From NCBI GenBank assembly GCA_031378375.1, contig JANNEF010000313.1, positions 3,893 through 67,892 of the forward strand: a stretch of 64,000 bases of DNA. Direction: 5' to 3'. The stretch is from Verrucomicrobiota bacterium. Its GTDB lineage: Bacteria; Verrucomicrobiota; Verrucomicrobiia; Limisphaerales; JANNEF01. The notes beneath the pieces were generated by a model. It worked only from the letters and a program-made list of their open reading frames with translations. It was not told where the DNA came from and ran no database searches. Shown here piece by piece: positions 3,604 through 60,769 of the stretch; positions within the stretch are counted from its first letter, which is position 1; the number at the start of each line of letters is the position of its first letter. Made by a program: the position numbers and the translations under genes.

Positions 3604-5175
3604 TCAATGCCGGAAATGCCGCACGCCGGTGAACACCATCGCCACGCCGTGCTCGTCCGCAGCGGCGATCACCTCGGCGTCGCGCATCGAGCCGCCCGGT
3701 TGAATCGCGGCGGTCGCGCCGGCTTTGGCGGCGGCGATCAGCCCGTCGGGAAACGGGAAGAAGGCGTCGCTGCACACCACGCTGCCCGCCAGCGAAAGGC
3801 CGGCCTCGCCCGCCTTCCACACGGCGATGCGGCTGGAGTCCACGCGGCTCATCTGCCCCGCGCCGATACCGAGCGTGCGGTCGGGGCCGGCATAGACGAT
3901 GGCGTTGGATTTGATGTGCTTCACCACGCGCCAGCCGAAGAGCATCGCCTGCATCTCGGCGGGCGTGGGCGGGCGCTTGCTCACCACCTTGAGGTCCGCC
4001 ACGCCGACGCTCTTCAAATCGCGCTCCTGCATCAGAAAGGATTCCGCGCCGACGCTGCGCACTTCCAGCGGCGACGCGTTGAGCGGGCTTTGGAGAATCT
4101 TCAGCAGGCGCAGGTTCTTCTTCTTCTGCAACAACGCCGCCGCGTCCGGCGTGAAGTCCGGCGCGACGATGACCTCGCTGAAAATCTCCGCGATGGCCTC
4201 GGCCACCGGCAGGTCGAGCGTGCGGTTCACGGCGATGATGCCGCCAAAGGGCGCCTGCTTGTCCGTGGCGAACGCGCGCTCCCACGCCTCGCGCAAGGTG
4301 TCGCCCTGCCCGACGCCGCACGGGTTGGTGTGCTTGAGGATGGCGAGCGTCGGGCGGTCGTTGACGAATTCGGCGATGAGTTGCGCCGCCGCCGTGAGGT
4401 CCAGAATGTTGTTATACGAAAGCTCCTTGCCGTGAAGCTGCCGGAAGAACTCGTGGAAGCGCCCGTAGAGCGCGGCGCGCTGGTGCGGATTTTCCCCGTA
4501 CCGCAACGGCTGAACGCGCGACGCCTGGACGGCGAGCGACGCGGGTAGTTCGGTTGCCGCCGACGCCAGGGCAGGGGAGGGGGCGCCAAAAATTTTGCCC
4601 AGATACGCGGCAATGCCGGCGTCGTAAGCGGACGTGCGGGCGAAGACGCGCGCGGCCAGTTGCCGGCGCAGTTGGAGCGTGGTGCCGCCTGCGGCCTGGA
4701 CCTGCGCGGCGACTTCGGCGTAGTCCGCCGGGTCCACGATGACGGTGACGCTCTCGTGGTTCTTGGCCGCGCTGCGCAGCATGGAAGGGCCGCCAATGTC
4801 AATGTTCTCAATCGCTTCCTCCAGCGTGACGCCGGGCCGGGCGACGGTTTGCTCGAAGGGATAGAGGTTCACCACCACGAGATCAATGGGCGCGATGCCG
4901 TGCGCTTTGACGGCGGCCTCGTGCGTCGCGTTGCCGCGAATGTAAAGCAGTCCGCCGTGAATCTTCGGGTGCAGCGTCTTCACGCGGCCATCGAGCATTT
5001 CGGGAAAGCCGGTGTGCGCGCTCAAATCCGTGACGGTCAATCCGCCGTCGCGCAGCGCCTTCGCGGTTCCGCCGGTCGAGATGAGTTCAACGCCCGCCGC
5101 GGCCAGCGTCTGGGCGAAGGGCAGCAGGCCGGTCTTGTCGAAAACAGAAAGGAGCGCGCGTTGAATCTTTGCCAT
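3604..5175 (-). CDS. purH: bifunctional AICAR transformylase / IMP cyclohydrolase
   Basis: Canonical PurH N-terminus [17 protein letters not shown]...GGTAKAL...[13 protein letters not shown] and C-terminal QPGGSMRD motif. Start moved to the ATG at 5175 (the MAKIQ start). Confidence 0.95.
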
Positions 5176-5254
5176 AAAAAATTGAGGCGCAAAAATCCCC
5201 GGTGGGTTCGGCGGAGTCAACGGTAGAATCGGAGCGTGAGGCGGGGCAGGGAAC

Positions 5255-5389
5255 CAGTAGTCAGTAGTCAGTAGTCAGTAGTCAGTAGTCAGTAGTCAGT
5301 AGTCAGTAGTCAGTAGTCAGTAGTCAGTAGTCAGTAGTCAGTAGTCAGTAGTCAGTAGTCAGTAGTCAGTAGTCAGTAGGTCAGTAGGT
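5255..5389. repeat. heptanucleotide microsatellite: (CAGTAGT)x17 perfect, then 2x CAGTAGGT
   Basis: Counted directly. 17 uninterrupted 7-nt units span 5255-5373, followed by two 8-nt variants at 5374-5389. Located in the purH/phoU intergenic region. Confidence 0.97.
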
Positions 5390-5423
5390 CAGTGAACCCG
5401 CGCCGGCACCCGTCGCACCGCCG

Positions 5424-5464
5424 TCCCCACTGGTTCACTGGTTACTGACCTACTGATTACTGAT
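5424..5464 (+). repeat. ACTGA-type heptamer arm (reverse complement of the CAGTAGT family); right arm of an imperfect inverted repeat
   Basis: tccccactggttcactggttactgacctactgattactgat. It is complementary to ...gtcagtaggtcagtgaacc at 5380-5398 across a GC-rich ~25-35-nt spacer. Confidence 0.8.
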
Positions 5465-5531
5465 CTGGGCCGCGCGTTCGCCCGGCGGGCGGGAACTTTG
5501 CAATTTCCTTTCGCGCCGCTTTGGGTTTTCC

Positions 5532-6239
5532 TTGGGGCAACGAATTTTTATCGCTGTGCCCGCTCATCTGGAAACTGAACTTGCTGCGTTGAAGGAAAAC
5601 TTGATCGTCATGGCCAGCCATGCCGAGGCGGCGGTCAATCGCGCCGTCAAGGCGCTCATCAAACGCGATGACGATCTCGCCCGGCAGACCAAGGAGGAGG
5701 ACAGCGTGATTGACCGGCTGGAGATCGAGATTGACGAGGCGGCCATCGCCTTGTTGAGCCATCAGCCGGCGGCGACGGACGTGCGGCTCATCACGATGAC
5801 GATGAAGATCGCGCACGACCTGGAGCGCGTGGGCGACGAGGCGACGACGATTTCGCGGCGTTGCCTGGCCTTGAGCCGCGAGCCGCAGCTCAAGCAGGCC
5901 GCCAGCATCCCGCGCATGGCGGCGCTGGCGGTGCAGATGTTGAAGGACGCGCTGGATGCTTTCGTCCACCGCGACCCGGCCCGGGCGCGCGCGGTGATCC
6001 CGCGTGACGAGGCGGTGGACGCGTTGAACAAGCAGATGCGCCGCGAGCTGGCGGCGTGCATGGCCGCGCAGCCCGCGACCATCGGGCGGTGCCTGGACTT
6101 GATGGTGATTTCCAAGAGCGTGGAGCGCATCGCCGACCACGCCACGAACATCGCCGAGGAAGTGGTTTACCTGTGCGAAGGGCGCGACATCCGCCATGGC
6201 GGCAAGAAGGCCAAGGCCGCCACGCCCGCCACGACTTGA
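5532..6239 (+). CDS. phoU: phosphate signalling complex protein PhoU
   Basis: 235 aa. Duplicated PhoU repeat with DLERVGDEA and SVERIADHATNIAE motifs. TTG start at 5532; GTG at 5556 is an alternative. Confidence 0.9.
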   Translation: MGQRIFIAVPAHLETELAALKENLIVMASHAEAAVNRAVKALIKRDDDLARQTKEEDSVIDRLEIEIDEAAIALLSHQPAATDVRLITMTMKIAHDLERVGDEATTISRRCLALSREPQLKQAASIPRMAALAVQMLKDALDAFVHRDPARARAVIPRDEAVDALNKQMRRELAACMAAQPATIGRCLDLMVISKSVERIADHATNIAEEVVYLCEGRDIRHGGKKAKAATPATT

Positions 6240-6249
6240 AGCTCCTGTT

Positions 6250-6933
6250 ATGAAACAAAAAATCCTCGTGGTGGATGATGAGCCGGATGCGGTCGAACTC
6301 ATCGCGTTCAACCTGAAGGCCGCCGGTTATGACGTGGTGACGGCCGACGACGGGGCGGTCGCGTTGAAGAAGGCGCGCGCGGTCCTGCCCGACCTCATCA
6401 TCCTGGACCTGATGTTGCCGGAGGTGGACGGGTTGGAGGTGTGCAAGATCCTCCGGCGCGATCCGCAGACTTCGGCGATCCCGATCCTGATGCTCACGGC
6501 GAAGGTGGCGGAGATTGACCGGGTGCTGGGGCTGGAACTGGGCGCGGATGATTATGTGACGAAGCCGTTCAGCCCGCGCGAGCTGGTGCTGCGCGCGAAG
6601 CGGTTGTTGCGCGGCGCGCAACCGGCCGAGGCGGTCCGCGACCACATCGTCTGGAAGGAATTGACCGTGGATGTTCCCAAACATCTGGTCACGGTGAAAG
6701 GCAAGCCGGTGGATCTGACGGTCACGGAGTTCAAGCTGCTGACCGTGCTGGTGCAGCGGCGCGGGCGCGTGCAGTCGCGCGATCAGTTGCTCCGCGACGT
6801 GTGGGATTACGAGAACGTGATGGACACGCGCACGGTGGACACGCACATGCGGCGCTTGCGCGAGAAGATCGGACCGGCGGCCAAATACCTGGATACGGTG
6901 CGCGGCGTGGGCTACCGCTTCGTCGAGGAGTGA
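6250..6933 (+). CDS. phoB: OmpR/PhoB-family response regulator
   Basis: MKQKILVVDDE...DLIILDLMLPEVDG...KPF receiver domain plus a winged-helix C-terminus (VDTHMRRLREKIG...VRGVGYRF). Lies between phoU and a PhoR-like kinase. ATG at 6250 chosen over the 6196 ORF start. Confidence 0.9.
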   Translation: MKQKILVVDDEPDAVELIAFNLKAAGYDVVTADDGAVALKKARAVLPDLIILDLMLPEVDGLEVCKILRRDPQTSAIPILMLTAKVAEIDRVLGLELGADDYVTKPFSPRELVLRAKRLLRGAQPAEAVRDHIVWKELTVDVPKHLVTVKGKPVDLTVTEFKLLTVLVQRRGRVQSRDQLLRDVWDYENVMDTRTVDTHMRRLREKIGPAAKYLDTVRGVGYRFVEE

Positions 6934-6950
6934 GGGCCGGAGACCAACCG

Positions 6951-8072
6951 ATGCGTGACGCGAACCAATCGGAGTGCGAGCGGTTGCGCGCGGAACTGGC
7001 CGCGTTGCGCGACCAGCACGAGCAGGCCACCGCGCAAATCCAGGCGCAACAGCAGGCGCTTTTCAACAGCATGGCCGAAGGCGTTCTCGTACTCGACGCC
7101 GCCGGGCGCATCCTGCTGGTCAACCAATCGCTCGAACGGCTCTTCCGCCTCACGTCGGACGTGCGGGGCCGCACCATCCTCGAAGCCTTCCGCCTGCGCG
7201 AACTGGCCGAACTCGCGGCCCGCCTCCAACAGGAACGCATGGTCAGCGGTTGTGAACTTGAACTGCCGGGCGTGGACGAACGCTGGCTGGAGGTCAACGC
7301 CGCCGCCGTGCTCGACCGCGCCGGCGCGCATCAGGGCGCGATCCTGGTGTTCCACGATCTGACGCGCCTCAAGCAACTGGAGAACACGCGGCGGGAATTC
7401 GTCGCCAACGTCAGCCACGAACTGCGCACGCCGCTCTCGCTCATCAAAGGCTTCGTGGAAACGCTGCTCGACGGCGCGAAGGACGACCCCGCCACCGCCA
7501 CGCGCTTCCTGCAAACCATCGAGAAGCACGCCGACCGCCTGACGTATCTCATCGAGGATTTGCTGACCATCTCCCGGCTGGAGAGCGGTCGCATCGTGTT
7601 GAACCTGCAACCCGTCGAGTTGCGCGCGGAAGCCCAGCGCGTGCTCGATGATCTCCAGGCACGCGCGGCGGAGAAACACATCACGCTGGAGAACCTGCTG
7701 CCCGCCGGCCTGTCCGCCCGCGCCGATGCGGACCGGCTCGAACAGGTGTTGTTCAACCTCGTCGAGAACGCCCTCAAGTACGGCGCGCCCGCGGGCCGGG
7801 TGCAACTCGGCGCGCGTGCGCGGGCGGAGGGCGGCGTCGAGTTGTGGGTGCGCGATGACGGGCCGGGCATCCCGGAGGAGGCGCGCGAGCGCATCTTCGA
7901 GCGGTTCTATCGCGTGGACCGCGCCCGCTCGCGCGAAACCGGCGGCACGGGGCTGGGGTTGGCCATCGTCAAGCACATCGTCCAGGCGCACGGCGGCGAA
8001 GTGTGGGTGAAGAGCGAACCGGGCCACGGCGCGACCTTCTATTTCACGCTGCCACAGTCGGGGCGGGGTTGA
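6951..8072 (+). CDS. phoR: PAS-domain sensor histidine kinase, PhoR-like, apparently soluble
   Basis: H-box FVANVSHELRTPL, N/G1/G2 boxes (NLVENALKYG, DDGPGIP, GGTGLGLAIVKH), an upstream PAS-like segment and an N-terminal coiled coil. No hydrophobic TM segment seen. ATG at 6951. Confidence 0.85.
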   Translation: MRDANQSECERLRAELAALRDQHEQATAQIQAQQQALFNSMAEGVLVLDAAGRILLVNQSLERLFRLTSDVRGRTILEAFRLRELAELAARLQQERMVSGCELELPGVDERWLEVNAAAVLDRAGAHQGAILVFHDLTRLKQLENTRREFVANVSHELRTPLSLIKGFVETLLDGAKDDPATATRFLQTIEKHADRLTYLIEDLLTISRLESGRIVLNLQPVELRAEAQRVLDDLQARAAEKHITLENLLPAGLSARADADRLEQVLFNLVENALKYGAPAGRVQLGARARAEGGVELWVRDDGPGIPEEARERIFERFYRVDRARSRETGGTGLGLAIVKHIVQAHGGEVWVKSEPGHGATFYFTLPQSGRG

Positions 8073-8168: not shown

Positions 8169-8348
8169 GCCACGTTCTCCATAATGGTTTTGCGCAGGTG
8201 AAAAGGTCTTGCGCAGCGGGCAAGGGTGCGGCAGATGAACGATTCAAGTTTTCAATCTCCCAACGCCATCCAACCTCAACCGAGGTTTGGCGCAGCGCCA
8301 CCGACACGCCCGCACACTCCCGGCCTTCGCGCCCTGAACCGCCGGATG

Positions 8349-8410
8349 TTTGTAGTCCCACCTTTAGGCGGTTGGAGGGCCGTGATTCCGCCTGAAGGCG
8401 GGACTACAAA
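8349..8410. repeat. REP-like palindromic element (tttgtagtccc...gggactacaaa)
   Basis: 23-nt arms at 8349-8371 and 8388-8410 are near-complementary, with a 16-nt loop. Confidence 0.85.
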
Positions 8411-8432
8411 CGGCGAACCACCCAGCCAGACC

Positions 8433-8728
8433 GATGCTTTCGGTTCTGCCAACCCCATCCTGCCCGGACGGACTGCCACTTTCGGACCCGAAAGCCCCAT
8501 CCGGCTGAACAGGACCACCTCATTCGGTACCGAAAGCCAGTTCCGCCAGGTCAGAATGCCTCTTTCAGACCCGAAAGCCTCATTCCCCCTGGACCGGACG
8601 CCACTTTCGGACCCGAAAATGCCATTCCGCTTCACCGGAACGCCACTTACAGAACCGAAAATGCCATTCCGCCACGCCAGTCTGCCACCTTCGGCCATGA
8701 AAATCAGCACCTTACGCAAAAACCATGG
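8433..8728. repeat. degenerate ~42-bp tandem array (6-7 units), each with a TTTCGG-ac-CCGAAA-type palindromic core
   Basis: Unit anchors at 8476, 8516, 8559, 8601, 8643 and 8685, with a weaker one at 8433. Both cores and inter-core segments are homologous between units. Confidence 0.8.
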
Positions 8729-8821
8729 TTTTCGCACTTTCGATGTAAGTGAAAATGCTCAAAAAACGCCACTTTTCCCATCCCAACTTGAAACCAGAAA
8801 CTAGAAACCAGAAACTTCCCC

Positions 8822-8867
8822 TCCCCACTGACCGACTGACTCACTGATTACTGACCTACTGATTACT
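8822..8867 (+). repeat. ACTGA-type heptamer arm, second copy
   Basis: tccccactgaccgactgactcactgattactgacctactgattact. It shares both ends (tccccactg... and ...ttactgacctactgattact) with the element at 5424-5464. It ends 31 nt before the ATG at 8899. Confidence 0.85.
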
Positions 8868-8898: not shown

Positions 8899-9696
8899 AT
8901 GCCCTACCGCCGCCTCCCCAACTCCATGCCCGCCGTGCTGCGCACCCTCAAAGCCGCGCGCGACACCTACAAAAACACCCCCGTCGCCGCCGACCGCGCC
9001 ATCAGCGCCGCGCAATTTGCCCTGCTCGACGACGCGCTCCCCGCCAGCCTGCTCAACCGCCTCATCAAAGAAGCCAGCGACGTGGACCTCGCCCAAGCCG
9101 CCCAGGCCCCGCTCACCACCGCGCTGGCCCAGACCGCCGCGCGCCTGACGATGTTCGTCTCCCACTTTCATCAAGTGCTCGACCTGGGCATCTTGCGCGG
9201 CACGTTTGCCGCCGGGGCGCGTGGCTATTATGGACGCGACATCCACGCCACCACCATCCCCGACCTCTCCGACTACGACGCCGTGCAAGAAGCCGCCGAC
9301 CGGCTCACCGCCGGCGAAACCGCGCGCGGCATCGCCGAAGGCGCCGCCTACGTGCCGATGCAACTGCCCAACGCCAGCGAAGTCGCCCTGCTCGACGCGC
9401 AATTCCACACTTTGCGCAGCCAGGCCCAGGCCGCCGAAGTGCGGACCGACCGCGAACAGGAAGAAGCCAGCGCCCTCTACCCCGATGCGCAGGCGCTGGC
9501 GGTGGACATCTGCGACACCGTGGAATTTTTCTACCGCAAAGACCCGGACGCCAGCAGCCGCCGGGTGAAAGCGATGCGTTGGGGCGTGGTGTACATCTAC
9601 GAGCCGAACGAAACACCCGACCCCGGCGCCCCCGCCGGTGCCGGCGGAGCCACCGGCGGAACGACACCTACGCCGCCCCCGCCACCAACTCCCTGA
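8899..9696 (+). CDS. hypothetical protein with Pro/Thr/Gly-rich C-terminal tail
   Basis: 265-aa ORF with normal amino-acid composition, unlike the Arg/Gly/Ala-rich overlapping antisense ORF 8893..9801. No family recognised. Confidence 0.6.
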   Translation: MPYRRLPNSMPAVLRTLKAARDTYKNTPVAADRAISAAQFALLDDALPASLLNRLIKEASDVDLAQAAQAPLTTALAQTAARLTMFVSHFHQVLDLGILRGTFAAGARGYYGRDIHATTIPDLSDYDAVQEAADRLTAGETARGIAEGAAYVPMQLPNASEVALLDAQFHTLRSQAQAAEVRTDREQEEASALYPDAQALAVDICDTVEFFYRKDPDASSRRVKAMRWGVVYIYEPNETPDPGAPAGAGGATGGTTPTPPPPPTP

Positions 9697-19819: not shown

Positions 19820-22414
19820 ATGAAAATTTGTCGTGTCTTCGGATGGTTGTCGTCTTTGCTTCTCTGCGCGGTTGCTGCGCCCCGCCTCTCCGCCGCAGAG
19901 GCCACGCCCCAGCCACCAGTCTTCACCGGCGGAGTCGTGACCAACGGCCAGCGGGTGTTTAGTTGGACGCCCTATCCCGCCGCCGACCAATACCGGATTC
20001 TCACGACTTCAAACCTGCTGGCCCCATTCATTGAGGATTTGGCGGGCGTGTTGTCCGGTAACACTTGGATCCAAAACTCGACGGCTCCGGTGGGATTTCA
20101 CCGGCTGCAGGTCACGCCGCTTTCCTCCAACGCCCTTTTTGCCGCGACGCTGCTCAACCGGATCACGTACGGGCCGTCGCCGGATTCCGTCGAGCGCATC
20201 GCCACCATCGGGCCGCAACGGTTTCTGGAGGAGCAATTGGCTTGGGAGCAAATCGCGGAGACGATTGACACGGACCCACCCATCACGAATGCGCCCATAA
20301 TCGTGCTGCCACCACCACCGCCGCCGCCGCTGACGAACTGGATACGCGTCGCGGTTACCGGCACCTCCTCTGGTCTCAATTTTGGAATGTATCTCAGCGG
20401 TGGATCGGGGCGGGTCTATGTTGACGACGTGAGGTTGGTTTACGGCACGAACGCGGACGTGGGTTCAAACCTCCTCGCGAATGCGGATTTTGAAGACCCG
20501 GAGTTGACGAACGGCTGGATTCGCGGAAGCAGCATCACCACCGGCACGATGATCACGAACAGCCCGACTGTGGACGGCCTCGCCGCCTCCGGCACCAATT
20601 GTGTGCTGCTGGTCGGCAACAACAATTCGACGCTCTCCGCCGGGTTGTATCAGCCTTTCACCAACGCGAACCCGCCAACGAGCCAGCGGTTTACATTGAG
20701 TTTCTCCTACCTGCCCGTGCGCCAGACTGTCAGCAACGTCTACCTCATCGTACGCACGTCCGGCACCGCTGCCACCTCGACCGTGCCGTTGCCCAACCCT
20801 CCGCCCACGCCGCCCACGCCGCCCACGCCGCCCACGCCGCCGCCGGCCGTTTCCCCCGCGTATGAGAAGCTGACGAACACGCTGGCGCAGATCGAAGACC
20901 TGCGCTCCTGGCACGTTCTCCACGCCGTCCGCAGCCAGCGCCAGCTTTACGAAATCCTCGTGCAATTCTTCGACAACCACTTCTGCACTCAGTATTCCAA
21001 AACGAAGGAATGGTTCGACAACGAGAAGGAGCAGTACGTGACCAACGAAACCGTCCGCGCGCGGCTGGCCACCGAGATGGATTGGCGCGAGCACGCCAAG
21101 TGGCGCGCGGCCCTGATGAACACCAACTGCAATTTTTACGATCTGCTCAAGATCAGCATTGAGAGTCCGGCGATGATCATCTACCTCGACACGGTGCTGA
21201 ACAAGAAGTCCGCTGCCAACGAGAACTACGGGCGCGAAATCCTCGAGCTCCACACCTTCGGCGCCGACAACGGTTACGTGCAGCAGGACATCGTGGATCT
21301 GGCCAAGGTCTGGACCGGCTGGTCGGTGGACAAAAAGGCTCCCGCCGATGCGAACAACCCCTTCGCCCCAGCCGTCCTCGACCGCACCAACGACGTCGGC
21401 GTGTGGACGCTGAACTTCGTCACCAACGATCACAGCTACGCCACCAAGCGGATGTTCACCAACGTGGTGGTTGCCCCGCGCTTCGGCCCGCCATACGGCG
21501 GCCAGCCCTACTCGCTCATCCTCTCCAACTACACCGGCACCAACGGGCTGGCCGAAGGCTACGCGGTCATAGATCATCTGGCCAAGTCGCCATACACCGC
21601 CGAGTTCCTGAGCGTGAAACTCTGCCGACTCTTCGTCCACGAGCACTTCGAAATCGACACCTATGACTACACCGCTCCGAATCCCTCGCTGGAAGTGCAA
21701 CTGGTCAAAGCGTGCATCACCGCGTGGGACACTCCGGCCGCCGACGGACGGCGCGGCAACATCCGTTCCATTCTCAACGTGATTCTCAACTCCGATCTCT
21801 TCCGCGGCCATGCGGCCTCGGCGCAGAAGGTCAAGACCCCGCTCGAACTGGCTGTGAGCGCCGTCCGTGCCCTGCGTTTGAACAGCACGGACATCAACGG
21901 CTGGGTCAGCAGCACGGGGGACACCGATGGCTACGGCATCGCTTACAGCAGCGGCAGTTCCAGCCCGCTCGTGCGCATGGGCAACATGAGCCTGTTCAAC
22001 AAGGCCGAGCCGGACGGCTACTCTGAATTCGGCCGCCTCTGGCTTAACACGGCCAACCTGTGCGAGCGCATGCGCTTCGTGCAGCACCTGCTGATGCCCA
22101 CGACCAGCAGCACCAAGTCTTCCGATTATGGAAGCGGCGGCACAAAGAACACCTCCAATCCGGCGGCGTTGGTCCGGGCGAAACTCCCCGCCGCCAGTTG
22201 GAACAACGCCGGCGCGGTCGCGGATTATTTCCTCGGAGTCCTTTACCCGGGAGAAGGCCGCGCCAACCTCGACCTGGACCGGCAGGCCGCCATCAATTTC
22301 CTGAACACCGACGACGCAGGCAACACCTCCACCTTCATTTTGGCGAGCCACGACACCCGGCTGCGCGGCATGGTGGCGATGCTGATGTGTTTTCCCCGCT
22401 TCCAGGAACAATAA
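19820..22414 (+). CDS. DUF1800 family protein with N-terminal FN3-like + CBM-like extension (paralogue)
   Basis: Signal MKICRVFGWLSSLLLCAVAAPRLSA. VYVDDVRLVYGTNADVGSNLLANADFE CBM-like domain. (PTP)n linker. DUF1800 core FFDNHFCTQYSK and NENYGREILELHTFGADNGYVQQDI. Confidence 0.85.
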   Translation: MKICRVFGWLSSLLLCAVAAPRLSAAEATPQPPVFTGGVVTNGQRVFSWTPYPAADQYRILTTSNLLAPFIEDLAGVLSGNTWIQNSTAPVGFHRLQVTPLSSNALFAATLLNRITYGPSPDSVERIATIGPQRFLEEQLAWEQIAETIDTDPPITNAPIIVLPPPPPPPLTNWIRVAVTGTSSGLNFGMYLSGGSGRVYVDDVRLVYGTNADVGSNLLANADFEDPELTNGWIRGSSITTGTMITNSPTVDGLAASGTNCVLLVGNNNSTLSAGLYQPFTNANPPTSQRFTLSFSYLPVRQTVSNVYLIVRTSGTAATSTVPLPNPPPTPPTPPTPPTPPPAVSPAYEKLTNTLAQIEDLRSWHVLHAVRSQRQLYEILVQFFDNHFCTQYSKTKEWFDNEKEQYVTNETVRARLATEMDWREHAKWRAALMNTNCNFYDLLKISIESPAMIIYLDTVLNKKSAANENYGREILELHTFGADNGYVQQDIVDLAKVWTGWSVDKKAPADANNPFAPAVLDRTNDVGVWTLNFVTNDHSYATKRMFTNVVVAPRFGPPYGGQPYSLILSNYTGTNGLAEGYAVIDHLAKSPYTAEFLSVKLCRLFVHEHFEIDTYDYTAPNPSLEVQLVKACITAWDTPAADGRRGNIRSILNVILNSDLFRGHAASAQKVKTPLELAVSAVRALRLNSTDINGWVSSTGDTDGYGIAYSSGSSSPLVRMGNMSLFNKAEPDGYSEFGRLWLNTANLCERMRFVQHLLMPTTSSTKSSDYGSGGTKNTSNPAALVRAKLPAASWNNAGAVADYFLGVLYPGEGRANLDLDRQAAINFLNTDDAGNTSTFILASHDTRLRGMVAMLMCFPRFQEQ

Positions 22415-24118: not shown

Positions 24119-25408
24119 ATGAAAAACATTTTTGGATGGAACACGCTCACTCTCGCGGTCGCCACCTTGGTGATTTGGCCGGTGGTTCAGACGTTTGCGG
24201 CCGATCCGGCGGCCCCAACCCCGTTGTCCCCACCCTTGCCGGGTTTACGGCCGATTGTCACCAATCGGCAGGCGTTATTGACCCCGCCGAACCTGACCAA
24301 CCGGCAGATTACCGTAGCACCGCCCCCAGCCTCCGGGCAGCCGGTGGCGGCGAATGGGTTGCCCCCGGCGCCGACTGCGCGCGTGCTGCCGCAGCCGGTC
24401 ATACCGGGTCTGAACACGCCCCCCAACGCGATTGTCTGGGATGCCGAGATCAAGGAGGTCAACGCCACGTTTGGCGACACGAACGCGCATTTCACCTTCT
24501 GGCTCACGAACACGCACACCAGCGAAGTGCTCGTGAACAATGTTCGCACCTCCTGCGGTTGCACCGTCGCCAAGCTGCCGGAACAGCCCTGGCACATCGC
24601 GCCTGGTGCCAGCGGGCCGATTGAAGTCAGCATGGACCTTCGCGGCCGGCGCGGGGTGCAAAGCAAGAGTGTCACGGTTGAGAGCAGCAGCGGTATCAAG
24701 AGTCTCGTGGTCAAGGCGAACATCGCCGAGGTGGGCGCCACCGCCACGCCGGAAGACGGCAAGCGGGTGAACAATCTGCAGGCGGCACTGGCGGACCGGC
24801 AGGCGGTGTTCAAAGGCGATTGCGCCTCGTGCCACGTCGAGCCGGCCAAGGGCAAGATGGGTGCGGAGCTTTACACCGCCGCGTGCGCCATCTGCCACGA
24901 CGCCGAACATCGCGCGGCGATGGTGCCGGACCTGAAGGTGCGCCATCCGAGCACGGCTTACGATTGGAAGACCTGGATCATGTACGGTCGGCCCGGTTCG
25001 TTGATGCCCGGCTTCGCCAAGAGCGAGGGCGGCCCGTTGACCGACGAGCAGATCGCTTCACTGTCGGATCTTTTGTGGCAGAAATACGGCAGCCCCACAA
25101 CGGGGACCGTGCCCGGCATCAAGCCGGTTTCACCGGCTTTTTCGGTGCCGCCAGCTACGCCGCCCACGCCGCCCACGCCGCCCACGCCGCCTTCTACACC
25201 AGTAATCGCTCCACGCGCGGCGGTCGTTGCGCCCTCATCGCCTGCGGTTTCTCCTGTCGCAACGGCCCCGGCGCTGATTCGTCCGGCACCACCTGCTGCG
25301 GCCACGGCTCCGGTGCTGCCCGCCGCGCCCAAGGTGGCTGTGCCTGCCGTCAAGCCTGCTCCTCCAGCCAGCAGCATCAGCGTGTTCCCGTTCCCGAAGG
25401 ACAAATAG
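24119..25408 (+). CDS. DUF1573 domain / c-type cytochrome fusion protein with Pro-rich tail
   Basis: Signal-anchor MKNIFGWNTLTLAVATLVIWPVVQTFA. DUF1573 hallmark VRTSCGCTVAKL. Two CXXCH motifs (CASCH, CAICH) followed by GSLMPGF...LTDEQIASLSDLL, typical of class I cytochrome c. ATG at 24119 preferred over TTG at 24095. Confidence 0.8.
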   Translation: MKNIFGWNTLTLAVATLVIWPVVQTFAADPAAPTPLSPPLPGLRPIVTNRQALLTPPNLTNRQITVAPPPASGQPVAANGLPPAPTARVLPQPVIPGLNTPPNAIVWDAEIKEVNATFGDTNAHFTFWLTNTHTSEVLVNNVRTSCGCTVAKLPEQPWHIAPGASGPIEVSMDLRGRRGVQSKSVTVESSSGIKSLVVKANIAEVGATATPEDGKRVNNLQAALADRQAVFKGDCASCHVEPAKGKMGAELYTAACAICHDAEHRAAMVPDLKVRHPSTAYDWKTWIMYGRPGSLMPGFAKSEGGPLTDEQIASLSDLLWQKYGSPTTGTVPGIKPVSPAFSVPPATPPTPPTPPTPPSTPVIAPRAAVVAPSSPAVSPVATAPALIRPAPPAAATAPVLPAAPKVAVPAVKPAPPASSISVFPFPKDK

Positions 25409-50720: not shown

Positions 50721-51167
50721 TCAACTTTGCCGGCAGCCCATCGTGAGCAGCACGTTGGCCCAGAGCGACTGGTCGGCGGTCTGGATCGTCAACACATGAT
50801 CGGGCGAGGCGACGGCTTCGTAGAAATCCCACTTCTGGATCGGCTCCAGTTTGAGTTTTAGCCGCGCCTGCTTGATCACCTGGCGGTATTCGTGCCACAC
50901 CGGCGGCTCGCCTTCGCGCGCGTAAGGATCGTCGGCGGGGATGCCCATCGTGTTTACGGCGTCCACCGGCGCGGCGCTCAACACGGCGCGCAGCACTTGC
51001 GCCACGGTCACGATGCCGGGCGCGAGGTTCAGGCAGACGAGTTGCGCGTTCGGACCTTTCTTGGTCGAGGCGGGGTAGTTGCCGTCGGCGATGAGAATCT
51101 TCGCGTGATGCCCGGCGCGGCCGAGGATTTCGTTGATCTGCGGGTGAAGGAGTTCGTGCTTGAGCAT
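50721..51167 (-). CDS. RbsD/FucU family sugar mutarotase/pyranase
   Basis: MLKHELLHPQINEILGRAGHHAKILIADGNYP... matches the RbsD/FucU N-terminal His-containing motif. Confidence 0.8.
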   Translation of the reverse strand: MLKHELLHPQINEILGRAGHHAKILIADGNYPASTKKGPNAQLVCLNLAPGIVTVAQVLRAVLSAAPVDAVNTMGIPADDPYAREGEPPVWHEYRQVIKQARLKLKLEPIQKWDFYEAVASPDHVLTIQTADQSLWANVLLTMGCRQS

Positions 51168-51216
51168 GTGCCGGAGTAATCAGTGGGTCAGTAATCAGTG
51201 AACCAGTTGTCAGTCG
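51168..51216 (-). repeat. ACTGA-type heptamer arm, third copy (reads gacgactgacaactggttcactgattactgacccactgattact on the minus strand)
   Basis: It occupies the whole 49-nt gap between the isomerase stop (51217) and the FucU-like start (51167). Orientation relative to the downstream start codon is the same as at 5424 and 8822. Confidence 0.85.
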
Positions 51217-52038
51217 TCACGGGCGGGGGAAGAATTTGCGGAAGCTCTCGATGGTTTGCTTTGCCGCCGTTGCGGAGTCGGGCAGCGGCAGCGCCTCCGC
51301 CGAGAGGAAGCCGGCGTAGCCGATGTCGCGCAACGCCCGTGCCACGGCGGCGACATCCGTGTGGCCGAAGCCGATCGCGCGCCGGTTGCTGTCCACGAAA
51401 TGGATGTGGCCGATGTGCGGGCCGCCGGCGCGCAGGGCGTCGGCCACGGACGCCTCCTCGATGTTCATGTGGAACAGGTCGCTCAGGAGCTTCACGTTTT
51501 TCGTCTGGAGCGTGCCGAGGAAGGCGACGGCATCGGCGGTGACGTTGAGCAGGTTGGTTTCAAAGCGGTTCAACGGCTCGTACAGCAACGCCACGCCGTG
51601 AGCCTGCGCGCGCGGGGCCAGCAGTTCCAACGCTTCGCGCAACCAGTCCAGCGCCTGCTCGCGGGAGACGCCGCCCTCGAAGCGCCCCTGCATGGAGCCG
51701 ATGATCGCGGGAGCGCCGAAGCCGCCGGCCAGATCAATGACGCTGCCGATGAATTCCCGCGCGGCGCGGCGCACCGCCGCATCGGCATCGGTGAGGCGTA
51801 ACTTGTGGACGACCCAGCCCGCGCCCGTGCCCATCGCGGCGAGCTTGAGGCGGTGTTGCGCGAGCAAAGCTTTCAGTTGGGGCGCGTCAAATGTTTCGAC
51901 GGCGCGGGGAAACACTTCCACCGCGTCAAATCCGAGCGCGGCGGCCTGCGCGCAGCCGGCGGCGAGGTCGTCCCAGAAGACGAACGGCCCACCGCGCGCT
52001 TCGGGCACGAGGGAAATGGTGACGGCGGATTGAATCAT
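51217..52038 (-). CDS. xylose-isomerase-like TIM-barrel sugar phosphate isomerase/epimerase
   Basis: 273 aa from ATG 52038. GFDAVE, ...LYEPLNRFE..., HIHFVDSNR metal-site-type motifs. Confidence 0.75.
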   Translation of the reverse strand: MIQSAVTISLVPEARGGPFVFWDDLAAGCAQAAALGFDAVEVFPRAVETFDAPQLKALLAQHRLKLAAMGTGAGWVVHKLRLTDADAAVRRAAREFIGSVIDLAGGFGAPAIIGSMQGRFEGGVSREQALDWLREALELLAPRAQAHGVALLYEPLNRFETNLLNVTADAVAFLGTLQTKNVKLLSDLFHMNIEEASVADALRAGGPHIGHIHFVDSNRRAIGFGHTDVAAVARALRDIGYAGFLSAEALPLPDSATAAKQTIESFRKFFPRP

Positions 52039-60148: not shown

Positions 60149-60769
60149 ATGAGAGTTCGTAGTCAGTGGTCAGTCGTCAGTAGTCAGGGCCTGCGCAGGC
60201 GTGGGCTGCGGACTACGGACTGCGGACTACGGACTGGCTGCGCCTTCACGCTCGTCGAAATCATGGTTGTCGTTGCCATCATGGGCGTGGTGATGACGAT
60301 GGCCATCCCGTCCATGTGGCGGAAGCTGCACCCTGAATCCATGCAGAAAGCCGTCTCGGACATGATGGAGGCGTGCAGCCACGCGCGGGCGAACGCGATT
60401 TTGGGCGGCGTGATCACCGAACTGGTCGTCCGTCCCTACGACCGGCAAATCAGCGTCCACGCCACCGGCAGTGCCACGGCGGATGATTCGCCATATGGCG
60501 GAGGAGACGCACCGCCATCGCCGAAATCAGGAGGCGGTGGGGAGGGTTTTTCCTTCCGCGTGGCCGAGAACATCATGATCGAAGGGATCCGGTTGAACTT
60601 GGAGGACTGGACGGAGGACGAGGAGGTGCGCGTGCGTTTTTATCCGAATGGAACGGCGGATGAGTTCAGCATTTTTTTCGTTTCGGACAAGGCGGAGCGA
60701 CGGCAGATTTTTCTGGAAGTGACGACGGGGCTCGCGGATCTGGAGTCGGATCCGCTAAAATTCAGGTGA
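60149..60769 (+). CDS. pseudopilin with prepilin-type N-terminal methylation motif (GspH-like), unusually long leader
   Basis: AFTLVEIMVVVAIMGVVMTMAIPS motif begins at codon 32-33. The only in-frame start upstream of it is the ATG at 60149. C-terminus is GspH-like (RVRFYPNGTADEFSIFF). Confidence 0.8.
   Translation: MRVRSQWSVVSSQGLRRRGLRTTDCGLRTGCAFTLVEIMVVVAIMGVVMTMAIPSMWRKLHPESMQKAVSDMMEACSHARANAILGGVITELVVRPYDRQISVHATGSATADDSPYGGGDAPPSPKSGGGGEGFSFRVAENIMIEGIRLNLEDWTEDEEVRVRFYPNGTADEFSIFFVSDKAERRQIFLEVTTGLADLESDPLKFR
60158..60236. repeat. heptamer-repeat inverted pair: (GTNGTCA)x4, GC spacer, (CGGACTR)x4
   Basis: cgtagtcagtggtcagtcgtcagtagtcag (60158-60187) and cggactacggactgcggactacggactgg (60209-60236). 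gtagtc and gactac are complementary. Same heptamer family as 5255-5373. Confidence 0.8.

Follow-up and report, generated by a model that had tools for sequence, protein, structure and literature searches.

A long heptamer tract between purH and phoU in a Verrucomicrobiota contig is probably one expanded copy of a dispersed intergenic repeat family

Introduction

When a long tandem repeat stands between two divergently transcribed operons, is it a switch for one of them, or is it a copy of something more widespread? The question is raised by a stretch of 64,000 nucleotides from a Verrucomicrobiota genome assembly (GCA_031378375.1, contig JANNEF010000313.1, positions 3,893 to 67,892 of the forward strand; the whole stretch is called the window below). 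Here 17 uninterrupted CAGTAGT units (ACTACTG on the minus strand) can be read directly at 5255-5373, between purH and an operon of phosphate signalling genes that begins with phoU. An earlier note on this DNA, made by a model from the sequence, had considered a phase-variable control of the phosphate regulators conceivable. If the tract did tune this operon, a core nutrient regulator would be subject to repeat-driven bet-hedging in a free-living environmental bacterium. That would be a rare case, outside the host-adapted pathogens from which loci of this type are known. The evidence described here points the other way.

We consider it probable that the tract and its arms belong to a dispersed and lineage-specific family of intergenic heptamers, as a copy in which slippage expanded one arm, and that this copy lies outside the promoters and has little effect as a switch. 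The function of intergenic heptamer families has been a standing question since at least 2007-2015. As far as the literature shows, three of our observations are new: a TCAGT-core family in Verrucomicrobiota and phages, a strict order of the arms in 44 lineages, and a possible assembly ceiling on the length of the arrays.

A perfect heptamer tract with a converging arm

Long simple-sequence repeats, in the sense of Mrazek 2007 (as cited in PMC4679880), are head-to-tail arrays of perfect or near-perfect 1-11 nt units that exceed the length expected by chance for the genome, and both parts of this definition describe the tract (5255-5373, plus strand). Tandem Repeats Finder (TRF) reported it at 5255-5393, with period 7, 19.6 copies, 99% matches and a score of 260; the strictly 7-periodic stretch is 5255-5379, or 125 nt. 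A two-unit pattern with up to three mismatches allowed gave 26 matches in the window compared to 0.88 expected from dinucleotide-preserving shuffles, which excludes a chance origin of the tract. The claim that 17 uninterrupted units lie beyond chance is therefore borne out by direct reading, by the TRF score and by the shuffles.

The 17 units make up the expanded outer part of a 5′ arm. The inner part of this arm (5374-5397, plus strand) consists of three 8-nt variant units, CAGTAGGT at 5374-5381, CAGTAGGT at 5382-5389 and CAGTGAAC at 5390-5397, which pair with a 3′ arm across a GC-rich spacer (about 5398-5427) that reading and folding identify as the hairpin loop. The 3′ arm (5428-5465, plus strand; TRF rows 5428-5447 and 5437-5464) is built of the ACTG-type units CACTGGTT CACTGGTT ACTGACCT ACTGATT ACTGATC, which read as the reverse complement are GATCAGT AATCAGT AGGTCAGT AACCAGTG AACCAGTG. 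This layout of variant units, spacer and inverted arm had been described before with two variants and an arm at 5424-5464; the layout stands, while the variants number three and the arm occupies 5428-5465.

The innermost parts of the two arms, 5366-5386 and 5443-5463, are 21 nt each and 95% complementary, and together with an inner 9-bp helix they can form the core of a hairpin or cruciform (5366-5463). Folded as DNA the element reaches a dG of -32.2 kcal/mol (z = -4.6); as RNA, both strands come to about -60 kcal/mol (z = -7.4 and -6.7). These folds lie far beyond those of shuffled sequences, in agreement with the earlier expectation that the region could form a long hairpin or cruciform. No Rfam 15 covariance model matched 5100-5650 at up to E = 1, and the Rfam scan of the whole window returned three tRNAs only.

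Some unit variants contain GATC, the Dam site, and by eye CAGTAGT does not. A Dam or CcrM methylation site (GANTC was also considered for the latter) is therefore not a general feature of the units.

The tract belongs to a family with four loci in the window

The window was searched for further members of the family using TRF and using CAGT or ACTG recurring at 7-8-nt spacing. Three further heptamer loci of the TCAGTNN type were identified (8785-8867, 51175-51217 and 60157-60236), giving four in all. Their neighbours are functionally unrelated: purH and phoU at the first, then a hypothetical gene, a sugar mutarotase gene, and T2SS-F with a prepilin-type gene. At all four, an ACTG-type array runs in the sense of the downstream gene.

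In the form seen in the window, the family appears to be specific to a narrow lineage, since 1.3 Mb from 80 other genomes held one run of at least four family units only and the nearest PurH relatives (81-85%) held no runs of at least four.

A class of converging heptamer arrays with a fixed arm order

With a degenerate five-unit pattern (CAGTNNT x4 plus CAGT) we collected at least 120 loci each from metagenome and viral collections. Arm order, spacing, polymorphism and arrays were counted among the matches listed after removal of duplicates, and this scope applies to the class counts throughout. There are 391 distinct elements, in which we find only a CAGT-type array alone (F), an ACTG-type array alone (R), or F followed by R. 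Where both arms have at least three units and lie within 150 nt of each other, the order (CAGTNNT)n-spacer-(ANNACTG)m prevails by 141:0 among the matches listed. When the partner arm is allowed to have two units the ratio becomes 185:8, and one of the eight (L171) is a plausible true exception. Because each order is its own reverse complement, the bias reflects a real structural rule. It was noted over all of the metagenome and viral loci (L084-L323), and at least 44 sequence families show the F-then-R order, with GC contents from 0.35 to 0.70 and no 18-mers in common beyond the arrays themselves.

Three simpler or wider rules were tried and rejected. A universal arm order for all heptamer families does not hold, as L047 (GGGGACT/AGTCCCC) and L007 (GAAGGCT/TTCAGCC) run in the opposite sense relative to their ACTG/TCAG cores; the arm-order rule is thus a property of each family. 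A purine-rich 5′ arm is not the rule either, L084 having a pyrimidine-rich one. Finally, it had seemed that ACTG-type arrays always stand in forward sense before start codons, as they do at the window loci and in the Beggiatoa genome, but single arrays of the class gave 74 gene starts against 72 gene ends.

Two-arm elements among the matches listed lie between co-directional genes in 59 of 103 cases, between divergent genes in 8 and between convergent genes in 6, and the median distance from their end to the next start codon is 19 nt. The two arms are unequal in 96 of 116 elements, with a median spacer of 16 nt, and CAGTTAT is the commonest unit in the metagenome set. The period itself is widespread: among the tandem repeats of 83 reference loci period 7 leads with 61 arrays, followed by period 6 with 22 and any other period with at most 11, and many of the period-7 arrays are converging pairs of quite different units.

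One family of the class belongs to the structural modules of tailed phages, where the genes encode a capsid-like protein, a head-tail adaptor and neck proteins. On five IMG/VR contigs with a GC content of about 0.6 (L276, L230, L247, L223 and L234), CAGTNNT/ANNACTG hairpins occupy nearly every gap between co-directional genes. The loops of these hairpins are often AAAGGCAAAAA, identical 35-nt spacers recur in one genome, and related phage contigs differ by whole arm-plus-spacer modules of 50 and 72 nt. Phage genomes with arrays between nearly all structural genes may offer a tractable system in which to study function.

Arrays of the class change in unit number between close relatives. We compared 37 ortholog groups, defined by near-identical flanks on different contigs, and 7 of them were polymorphic. 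The array lengths differed by 7, 7, 7 and 21 nt, and in two further cases a whole module (50 and 72 nt) had been gained or lost. The earlier statement that tracts of this kind change unit number thus holds at the level of the class, and the literature agrees, with Cyanothece strains differing by 7-nt indels (PMC4679880) and heptamer arrays varying extensively in length among Xanthomonas species (PMC4692102).

Against this background the window element is an extreme member. Its arm of 20 units, with a run of 17 identical ones, falls in the top 1% of 538 arrays, and at least 17 identical units occur in only 3 of the 538, a rarity which argues for recent expansion. Its inner arms also pair unusually well for the class, in which the match between arms is barely above that of controls. 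In the explanation we favour, the element takes the usual two-arm form of the family, a CAGT-type array, a spacer and a converging ACTG-type array with the core TCAGTNN/NNACTGA, in which the inner ~40 nt of both arms would pair to give a hairpin or cruciform and the 17 identical outer units would represent a recent expansion of one arm through replication slippage. On this account the tract is very likely hypermutable in 7-nt steps.

The tract lies between conserved blocks upstream of purH and phoU

Is such a tract placed where a change in length would matter to its neighbours? On one side lies purH (3604-5175, minus strand), whose product passes the NCBIfam cut-off and whose ATG is at 5175-5173. 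On the other side lies phoU (5556-6239, plus strand), which passes TIGR02135. The best supported phoU start is the GTG at 5556 (227 aa) rather than the TTG at 5532. The NCBI annotation of the contig starts the gene at a later ATG (5610, 209 aa), but the profile alignment begins at residue 4 of the longer protein and favours the GTG. The spacer is therefore 380 nt, and it leaves 79 nt between the purH ATG and the start of the tract and about 90 nt between the end of the inverted arm and phoU. The divergent arrangement recorded previously stands, and these distances replace the 357 bp, 80 nt and ~70 nt then given.

Downstream of phoU follow genes for a PhoB-like response regulator (6250-6933) and a PhoR/PnpS-like histidine kinase that ends at 8072 (6250-8072 for the two, plus strand). 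PhoB and PnpS/PhoR are the best profile matches of the two proteins, with scores just under the curated cut-offs. The neighbours of the tract are thus purH and a phosphate signalling operon, and not surface, host-interaction or restriction-modification genes.

Alignment of the purH upstream region with three relatives identified a common block that consists of GATTCTnCCnTTGAC, 17 nt, GATTTT/GAATTT, about 15 nt and the ATG. On the strength of this conservation it contains a candidate purH promoter (5192-5220, minus strand) with a -35 hexamer TTGACT at 5220-5215, a 17-nt spacer and a -10 hexamer GATTTT at 5197-5192. This block is conserved in four species and separates the purH ATG from the tract, which starts 34 nt upstream of the -35-like hexamer. 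Next to phoU, a conserved stretch of some 60 nt (5494-5555, plus strand) aligns with relatives at 76-78% PhoU identity and is a candidate promoter or operator region. These relatives share the phoU-regulator-kinase operon, and upstream of their phoU no heptamer array was found.

Since conserved blocks separate the element from each start codon, the tract stands in the non-conserved middle of the spacer. It is likely to lie outside the promoters of both purH and phoU, as judged from conservation rather than from mapped starts. In that position, changes in unit number would not alter any -35/-10 spacing, contrary to the idea that they would shift parts of a promoter against one another. From a tract distal to the promoter-proximal blocks, one then expects purH and phoU-phoB-phoR to be switched on or off little if at all. 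At most, length changes would lengthen the spacer between the divergent promoters or alter a structure-prone insulator between them. The earlier note had named a tract outside both promoters and leaders as the arrangement that would speak against its proposal; comparative inference comes close to this arrangement, although on a basis other than transcript starts.

The gene order around the tract also varies. PurH and PhoU each fall in clusters with one member, with the next relatives at 85% (PurH) and 78% (PhoU), and a second sequence of the species that spans the locus was not found. In other genomes purH and phoU are not kept side by side. The PurH relatives at 81-85% are flanked by other genes, and most PhoU relatives follow pstB, while those at 76-78% keep the phoU-regulator-kinase operon behind other upstream genes. 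Taken together, the position of the tract, its membership of a dispersed family and its absence from relatives with the same operon argue against a contingency switch. A phase-variable control of the phosphate regulators is thus unsupported, and from the comparison of sequences we regard such a switch as unlikely.

The tract was also considered as a Pho box and rejected, its period being strictly 7 nt whereas a Pho box has direct 7-bp repeats at about 11-bp spacing. The conserved block upstream of phoU contains a 15-nt direct repeat with 23-nt spacing (CTTTGCAATTTCCTT at 5496-5510 and CTTTGGGTTTTCCTT at 5519-5533), and this repeat (5496-5533) would be a better candidate for a PhoB operator than the tract.

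A scan for sigma-70 promoters and terminators found no terminator and one weak promoter match. The match (5169-5196, plus strand) reads TTGCCA, 16 nt, AAAAAT, with 9 of 12 consensus positions, and is the only one of its kind in the spacer.

Alternative explanations and the count of 17

Several observations weigh against the explanation that we favour, that of a dispersed family copy with little effect on its neighbours. If the weak plus-strand site at 5169-5196 were used, the whole element would lie in a phoU leader of ~350 nt. The closest PurH relative (85%, L324) carries at 57-186 a heptamer-armed hairpin with another unit (CAAAGCT/AGCTTTG) in the equivalent position, directly before the conserved promoter-like block of purH, where it follows a co-directional gene. 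This hints that structure at the purH site may be kept by selection. The fixed arm order in 44 lineages suggests constraint or recognition beyond neutral slippage. Finally, the window copy is atypically placed, because sites between divergent genes are a minority both in the class (8 of 103) and in Xanthomonas (7-8%; PMC4692102).

The number of units needs to be considered separately from the nature of the element. An unrelated contig (L124, GC 0.48 compared to 0.62 in the window) also contains CAGTAGT x17, with a periodic length of exactly 125 nt at 1514-1638. These are the two longest contig-internal periodic stretches among 324 contigs. Longer stretches (127 and 162 nt) are all found at the edge of a contig or locus, and in several cases a contig stops within an array, an observation that MacGregor reports too for such repeat regions (PMC4679880). 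Because the 125-nt length recurs and is exceeded at edges only, the copy number is to be taken as "at least about 17", and 17 may be a ceiling that arises from short-read assembly. It is possible, though on balance we doubt it, that the unit number is partly an artefact, with a length set by the assembler or by the read length. Such an artefact would be compatible with the other explanations. It would touch the number of units only, and not the existence or nature of the element, whose flanks, variant units and inverted arm are unique sequence and consistently joined. Heptamer arrays break or cap short-read assemblies, and true lengths are consequently under-reported in a systematic way.

A wider proposal would unite the converging TCAGTNN/NNACTGA pairs of Verrucomicrobiota, other uncultured bacteria and tailed phages in a single cross-phylum class of cis-elements. 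The arm order would then stem from a conserved factor or from the copying of hairpins, and slippage would make individual copies into heritable rheostats, for example through a phoU leader hairpin like that of the Haemophilus influenzae adhesin gene hmw1A or through a frameshift switch at 60149. We think it improbable that all of this holds.

A more specific proposal concerns the RNA. If phoU-phoB-phoR were transcribed from the purH side, the element might form a heptamer hairpin in the 5′ untranslated region (5′-UTR) that is cut by a double-strand-specific RNase, so that expression would scale with unit number and the operon would be tuned in a heritable and reversible manner. The layout matches the tested 5′-UTR hairpin of hmw1A (PMC12721329), the RNA hairpin of the element is very stable (about -60 kcal/mol, z = -7.4), and a plus-strand promoter would be available in the single consensus match of the spacer. 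Phage operons carry like hairpins between co-directional genes, and from this location the phage hairpins are almost certainly transcribed. However, the putative promoter is weak and overlaps the purH start codon, while the conserved block lies directly upstream of phoU, where a promoter or operator is expected, in relatives that have no array. Nor does the class bear the mark of selection on RNA. In 63 co-directional hairpins, in which RNA-strand selection was assessed from G-U versus A-C asymmetry, the sense strand was no more stable than the antisense strand (-48.8 vs -49.1 kcal/mol, p = 0.74), and the arms were equally long on average. At the three variable unit positions the arms match in 63% of cases compared to 55% in cross-locus controls, and shuffling the order of units changes nothing. 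The class conserves an oriented core and a 7-nt phase, not exact pairing. With housekeeping regulators downstream in place of the surface or host-interaction genes that are typical of contingency loci, we give an RNA rheostat only a slim chance.

The equal stability of the strands, the equal mean length of the arms and the conservation of the oriented CAGT/ACTG core and its phasing rather than exact complementarity are what would be seen if the element worked at the level of DNA. It might do so as a cruciform under negative supercoiling between the divergent promoters, or as oriented arrays of factor-binding sites, and in this way couple or insulate purH and phoU. The fixed arm order in 44 lineages would be expected of oriented sites, paired MTYCTGA x5 arrays in Geobacter metallireducens are predicted global-regulator sites (PMC2700814), and the hairpin of L324 shows a different unit in the same place relative to the purH promoter. 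Against this, no candidate binding protein was identified, the spacer between the arms ranges from -5 to more than 100 nt and so is a poor fit to a rigid dimeric protein, the units vary widely between lineages, and cruciform extrusion is rare in vivo. A role of this kind has in our view little likelihood.

Very improbable, lastly, is a mobile hairpin akin to REPINs or miniature inverted-repeat transposable elements, copied by a hairpin-recognising transposase that would give the fixed arm order and with the long tract as secondary slippage in one copy: the arm orientation is fixed as in doublets of repetitive extragenic palindromes (REPs), one phage family shares identical spacers within a genome (a 35-nt spacer twice, with recurring GGCA loops), near-identical contigs differ by whole arm-plus-spacer modules (50 or 72 nt) and CAGTAGT contains GTAG, the REP tag (PMC3733652), but the four window copies are unlike in both spacer and unit composition, flanking target duplications and near-identical copies are absent, GTAG occurs only in the CAGTAGT variant and there within the paired stem and not as an unpaired tag, and REPs are unique 20-40-bp palindromes rather than arrays (a transposase gene was looked for among the neighbouring genes of the four loci only).

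Other family loci and repeats in the window

The second family locus (8785-8867, plus strand) combines AACCAGA/AACTAGA x4 at 8785-8816 with five ACTG-type units at 8827-8867. It lies 31 nt upstream of a hypothetical open reading frame (ORF) that starts at 8899, and it does not fold. AACCAGA/AACTAGA is a second kind of heptamer and does not pair with the array at 8827-8867 (RNA dG -1.5 kcal/mol).

The third locus (51175-51217, plus strand) is a single array of five or six CAGT-type units. It takes up the whole gap that separates two minus-strand genes, one xylose-isomerase-like and the other of the RbsD/FucU type, and comes to within 7 nt of the RbsD/FucU ATG at 51167. A Shine-Dalgarno-like sequence is not visible there, and the arrangement is that described by MacGregor for Beggiatoa.

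The fourth, locus D (60157-60236, plus strand), is a hairpin of GTAGTCA-type x4 and CGGACTA-type x4 units with an RNA dG of -49 kcal/mol. It begins 13 nt past the stop codon of T2SS-F, inside the predicted leader-coding part of the prepilin-type gene. The hairpin lies within the only open frame that leads into this gene, which opens with an ATG at 60149, 4 nt past the T2SS-F stop. Counted from this ATG, the N-methylation motif is at residues 32-53, and the gene would be thrown out of frame if a single 7-nt unit were gained or lost. A contig about 93% identical (L327) has the same ATG, frame and length at this locus, with no indel and with substitutions in the 5′ arm only. The leaders of homologues vary from 13 to 65 residues, so that the true start of the gene is uncertain.

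Other heptamer arrays occur near phoU genes, two of them in distant genomes. In a Verrucomicrobia metagenome-assembled genome (MAG), units of the type AGAAGCG... and CTACTCG x5 stand directly upstream of phoU and after pstB (L004, 6808-7005), and in a Nitrospirota MAG the same place is taken by TGACTGC x4 (L050, 9947-9973). Given how common such arrays are, these two are probably a coincidence. In a relative at 76% PhoU identity, the space from the PhoB-like to the PhoR-like gene is taken up by two adjacent arrays, GTGATGC x3.3 and ATTCGAC x4.1 (L328, 2903-2955). In the window itself, the 826-nt gap after the PhoR-like gene contains seven copies of a 42-nt unit (8409-8709) that are 60-76% identical, each with a small CTTTCGG...CCGAAAG hairpin and without an Rfam match. 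An ORF at 8226-8804 spans this array, and its translation looks unconvincing. The TRF table also lists two perfect 9-nt tandem repeats, CCGCCCACG x4.6 (20801-20841) and ACGCCGCCC x3.9 (25157-25191), which are presumably coding because their period is a multiple of three.

Comparison with known repeat systems

Heptanucleotides are given as the commonest long simple-sequence repeats in prokaryotes by Mrazek 2007, as cited in PMC4679880 and PMC4692102. Among the known systems with which the family can be compared, REPs and REPINs are GTAG- and CGTC-tagged palindromes of 20-40 bp with an unpaired 4-nt tag, near-identical copies and a link to RAYTs (Di Nocera 2013, PMC3733652). They are like the family in being dispersed intergenic hairpins, often inverted pairs of fixed orientation, mostly between co-directional or convergent genes. 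Identity was rejected, the arms of the family being tandem arrays, the four window copies differing in unit and spacer, and GTAG lying inside the paired repeat.

The class 3 global regulator sites of Geobacter metallireducens consist of five tandem MTYCTGA units, mostly paired, and are predicted to be protein-binding sites (PMC2700814). They too are short, multi-copy heptamer arrays; their core is CTGA, they commonly come in pairs and are depicted as hairpins, and they differ from the family in their fixed size of five units and in the unit itself. In another phylum, one of low GC content, short tandemly repeated repetitive (STRR) heptanucleotides are dispersed tandem heptamers that have mainly been used in strain fingerprinting. 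Mazel and colleagues are said to have described three such cyanobacterial units in 1990, two of which reportedly contain CAGT. We know of no description of a paired architecture for them. Three tandem heptanucleotides are reported for Calothrix PCC 7601, according to PMC4692102.

The hmw1A gene is the one tested case known to us in which a heptamer tract and a complementary arm control expression, setting the level of an adhesin. There the tract is the left arm of a 5′-UTR hairpin that RNase III cleaves, repeat number and expression are inversely proportional, and repeat-number change depends on the hairpin (PMC12721329). The (ATCTTTC)n repeats of hmw1A and hmw2A resemble the window element in being a long tract ahead of a gene that pairs, as one arm of a long hairpin, with a complementary stretch further downstream, and slippage changes their unit number (PMC12721329; PMC8262952). 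They differ in that the hmw tract has been shown to be transcribed and cleaved by RNase III, whereas comparative data put the likely promoters on the gene side of the window element. They also form a single locus upstream of a surface adhesin, in contrast to a dispersed family beside housekeeping genes.

Closer in genomic distribution are the GGGAATC arrays of Xanthomonas (GGGGAYT in Nostoc), about 90% of which are intergenic, with 2-26 units and 70-75 convergent pairs per genome (Rehm et al. 2015, PMC4692102). Co-directional genes flank most of them and divergent genes only a few, and their neighbours belong to all functional classes (PMC4692102). Rehm et al. judged phase variation unlikely and found no function for these arrays (PMC4692102). 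The window element is a convergent pair of the same type, with arrays on opposite strands that lie close together and are able to form a stem-loop. The G-quadruplex chemistry of GGGAATC is not applicable to CAGTAGT, which has no G-tracts.

Closest in sequence are the intergenic TAACTGA arrays of Beggiatoaceae, 15 cyanobacteria and 5 Bacteroidetes, which have up to 43 copies and whose function is unknown (MacGregor 2015, PMC4679880). The phylum of our host, a Pedosphaera-like Verrucomicrobiota, is not on MacGregor's list (PMC4679880). TAACTGA occurs almost only as direct arrays (169 direct sets compared to one inverted repeat; PMC4679880), whereas converging pairs are usual here. Beggiatoa arrays end a few nt from start codons (PMC4679880), a pattern that the tract does not follow (79 and about 90 nt from the two starts) and that the locus at 51175-51217 does. 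Single arrays of the CAGT/ACTG class have no orientation preference toward gene starts, unlike those of Beggiatoa. The core is nevertheless the same, TAACTGA being TCAGTTA on the other strand and hence the CAGTTAT unit, and the window unit CTACTGA is identical to it at 5 of 7 positions. Exact TAACTGA is not present in the element, but the TCAGTNN/ACTGA core recurs at 7-nt phase in the tract (CTACTGA) and in the 3′ arm (ACTGATT, ACTGATC and ACTGACCT). As in TAACTGA-type families, many sets stand beside unrelated genes, and within the 64-kb window alone there are four such loci. The two also have in common that they are intergenic, with many sets per genome, that they mix related heptamers and that 7-nt indels separate their copies between strains.

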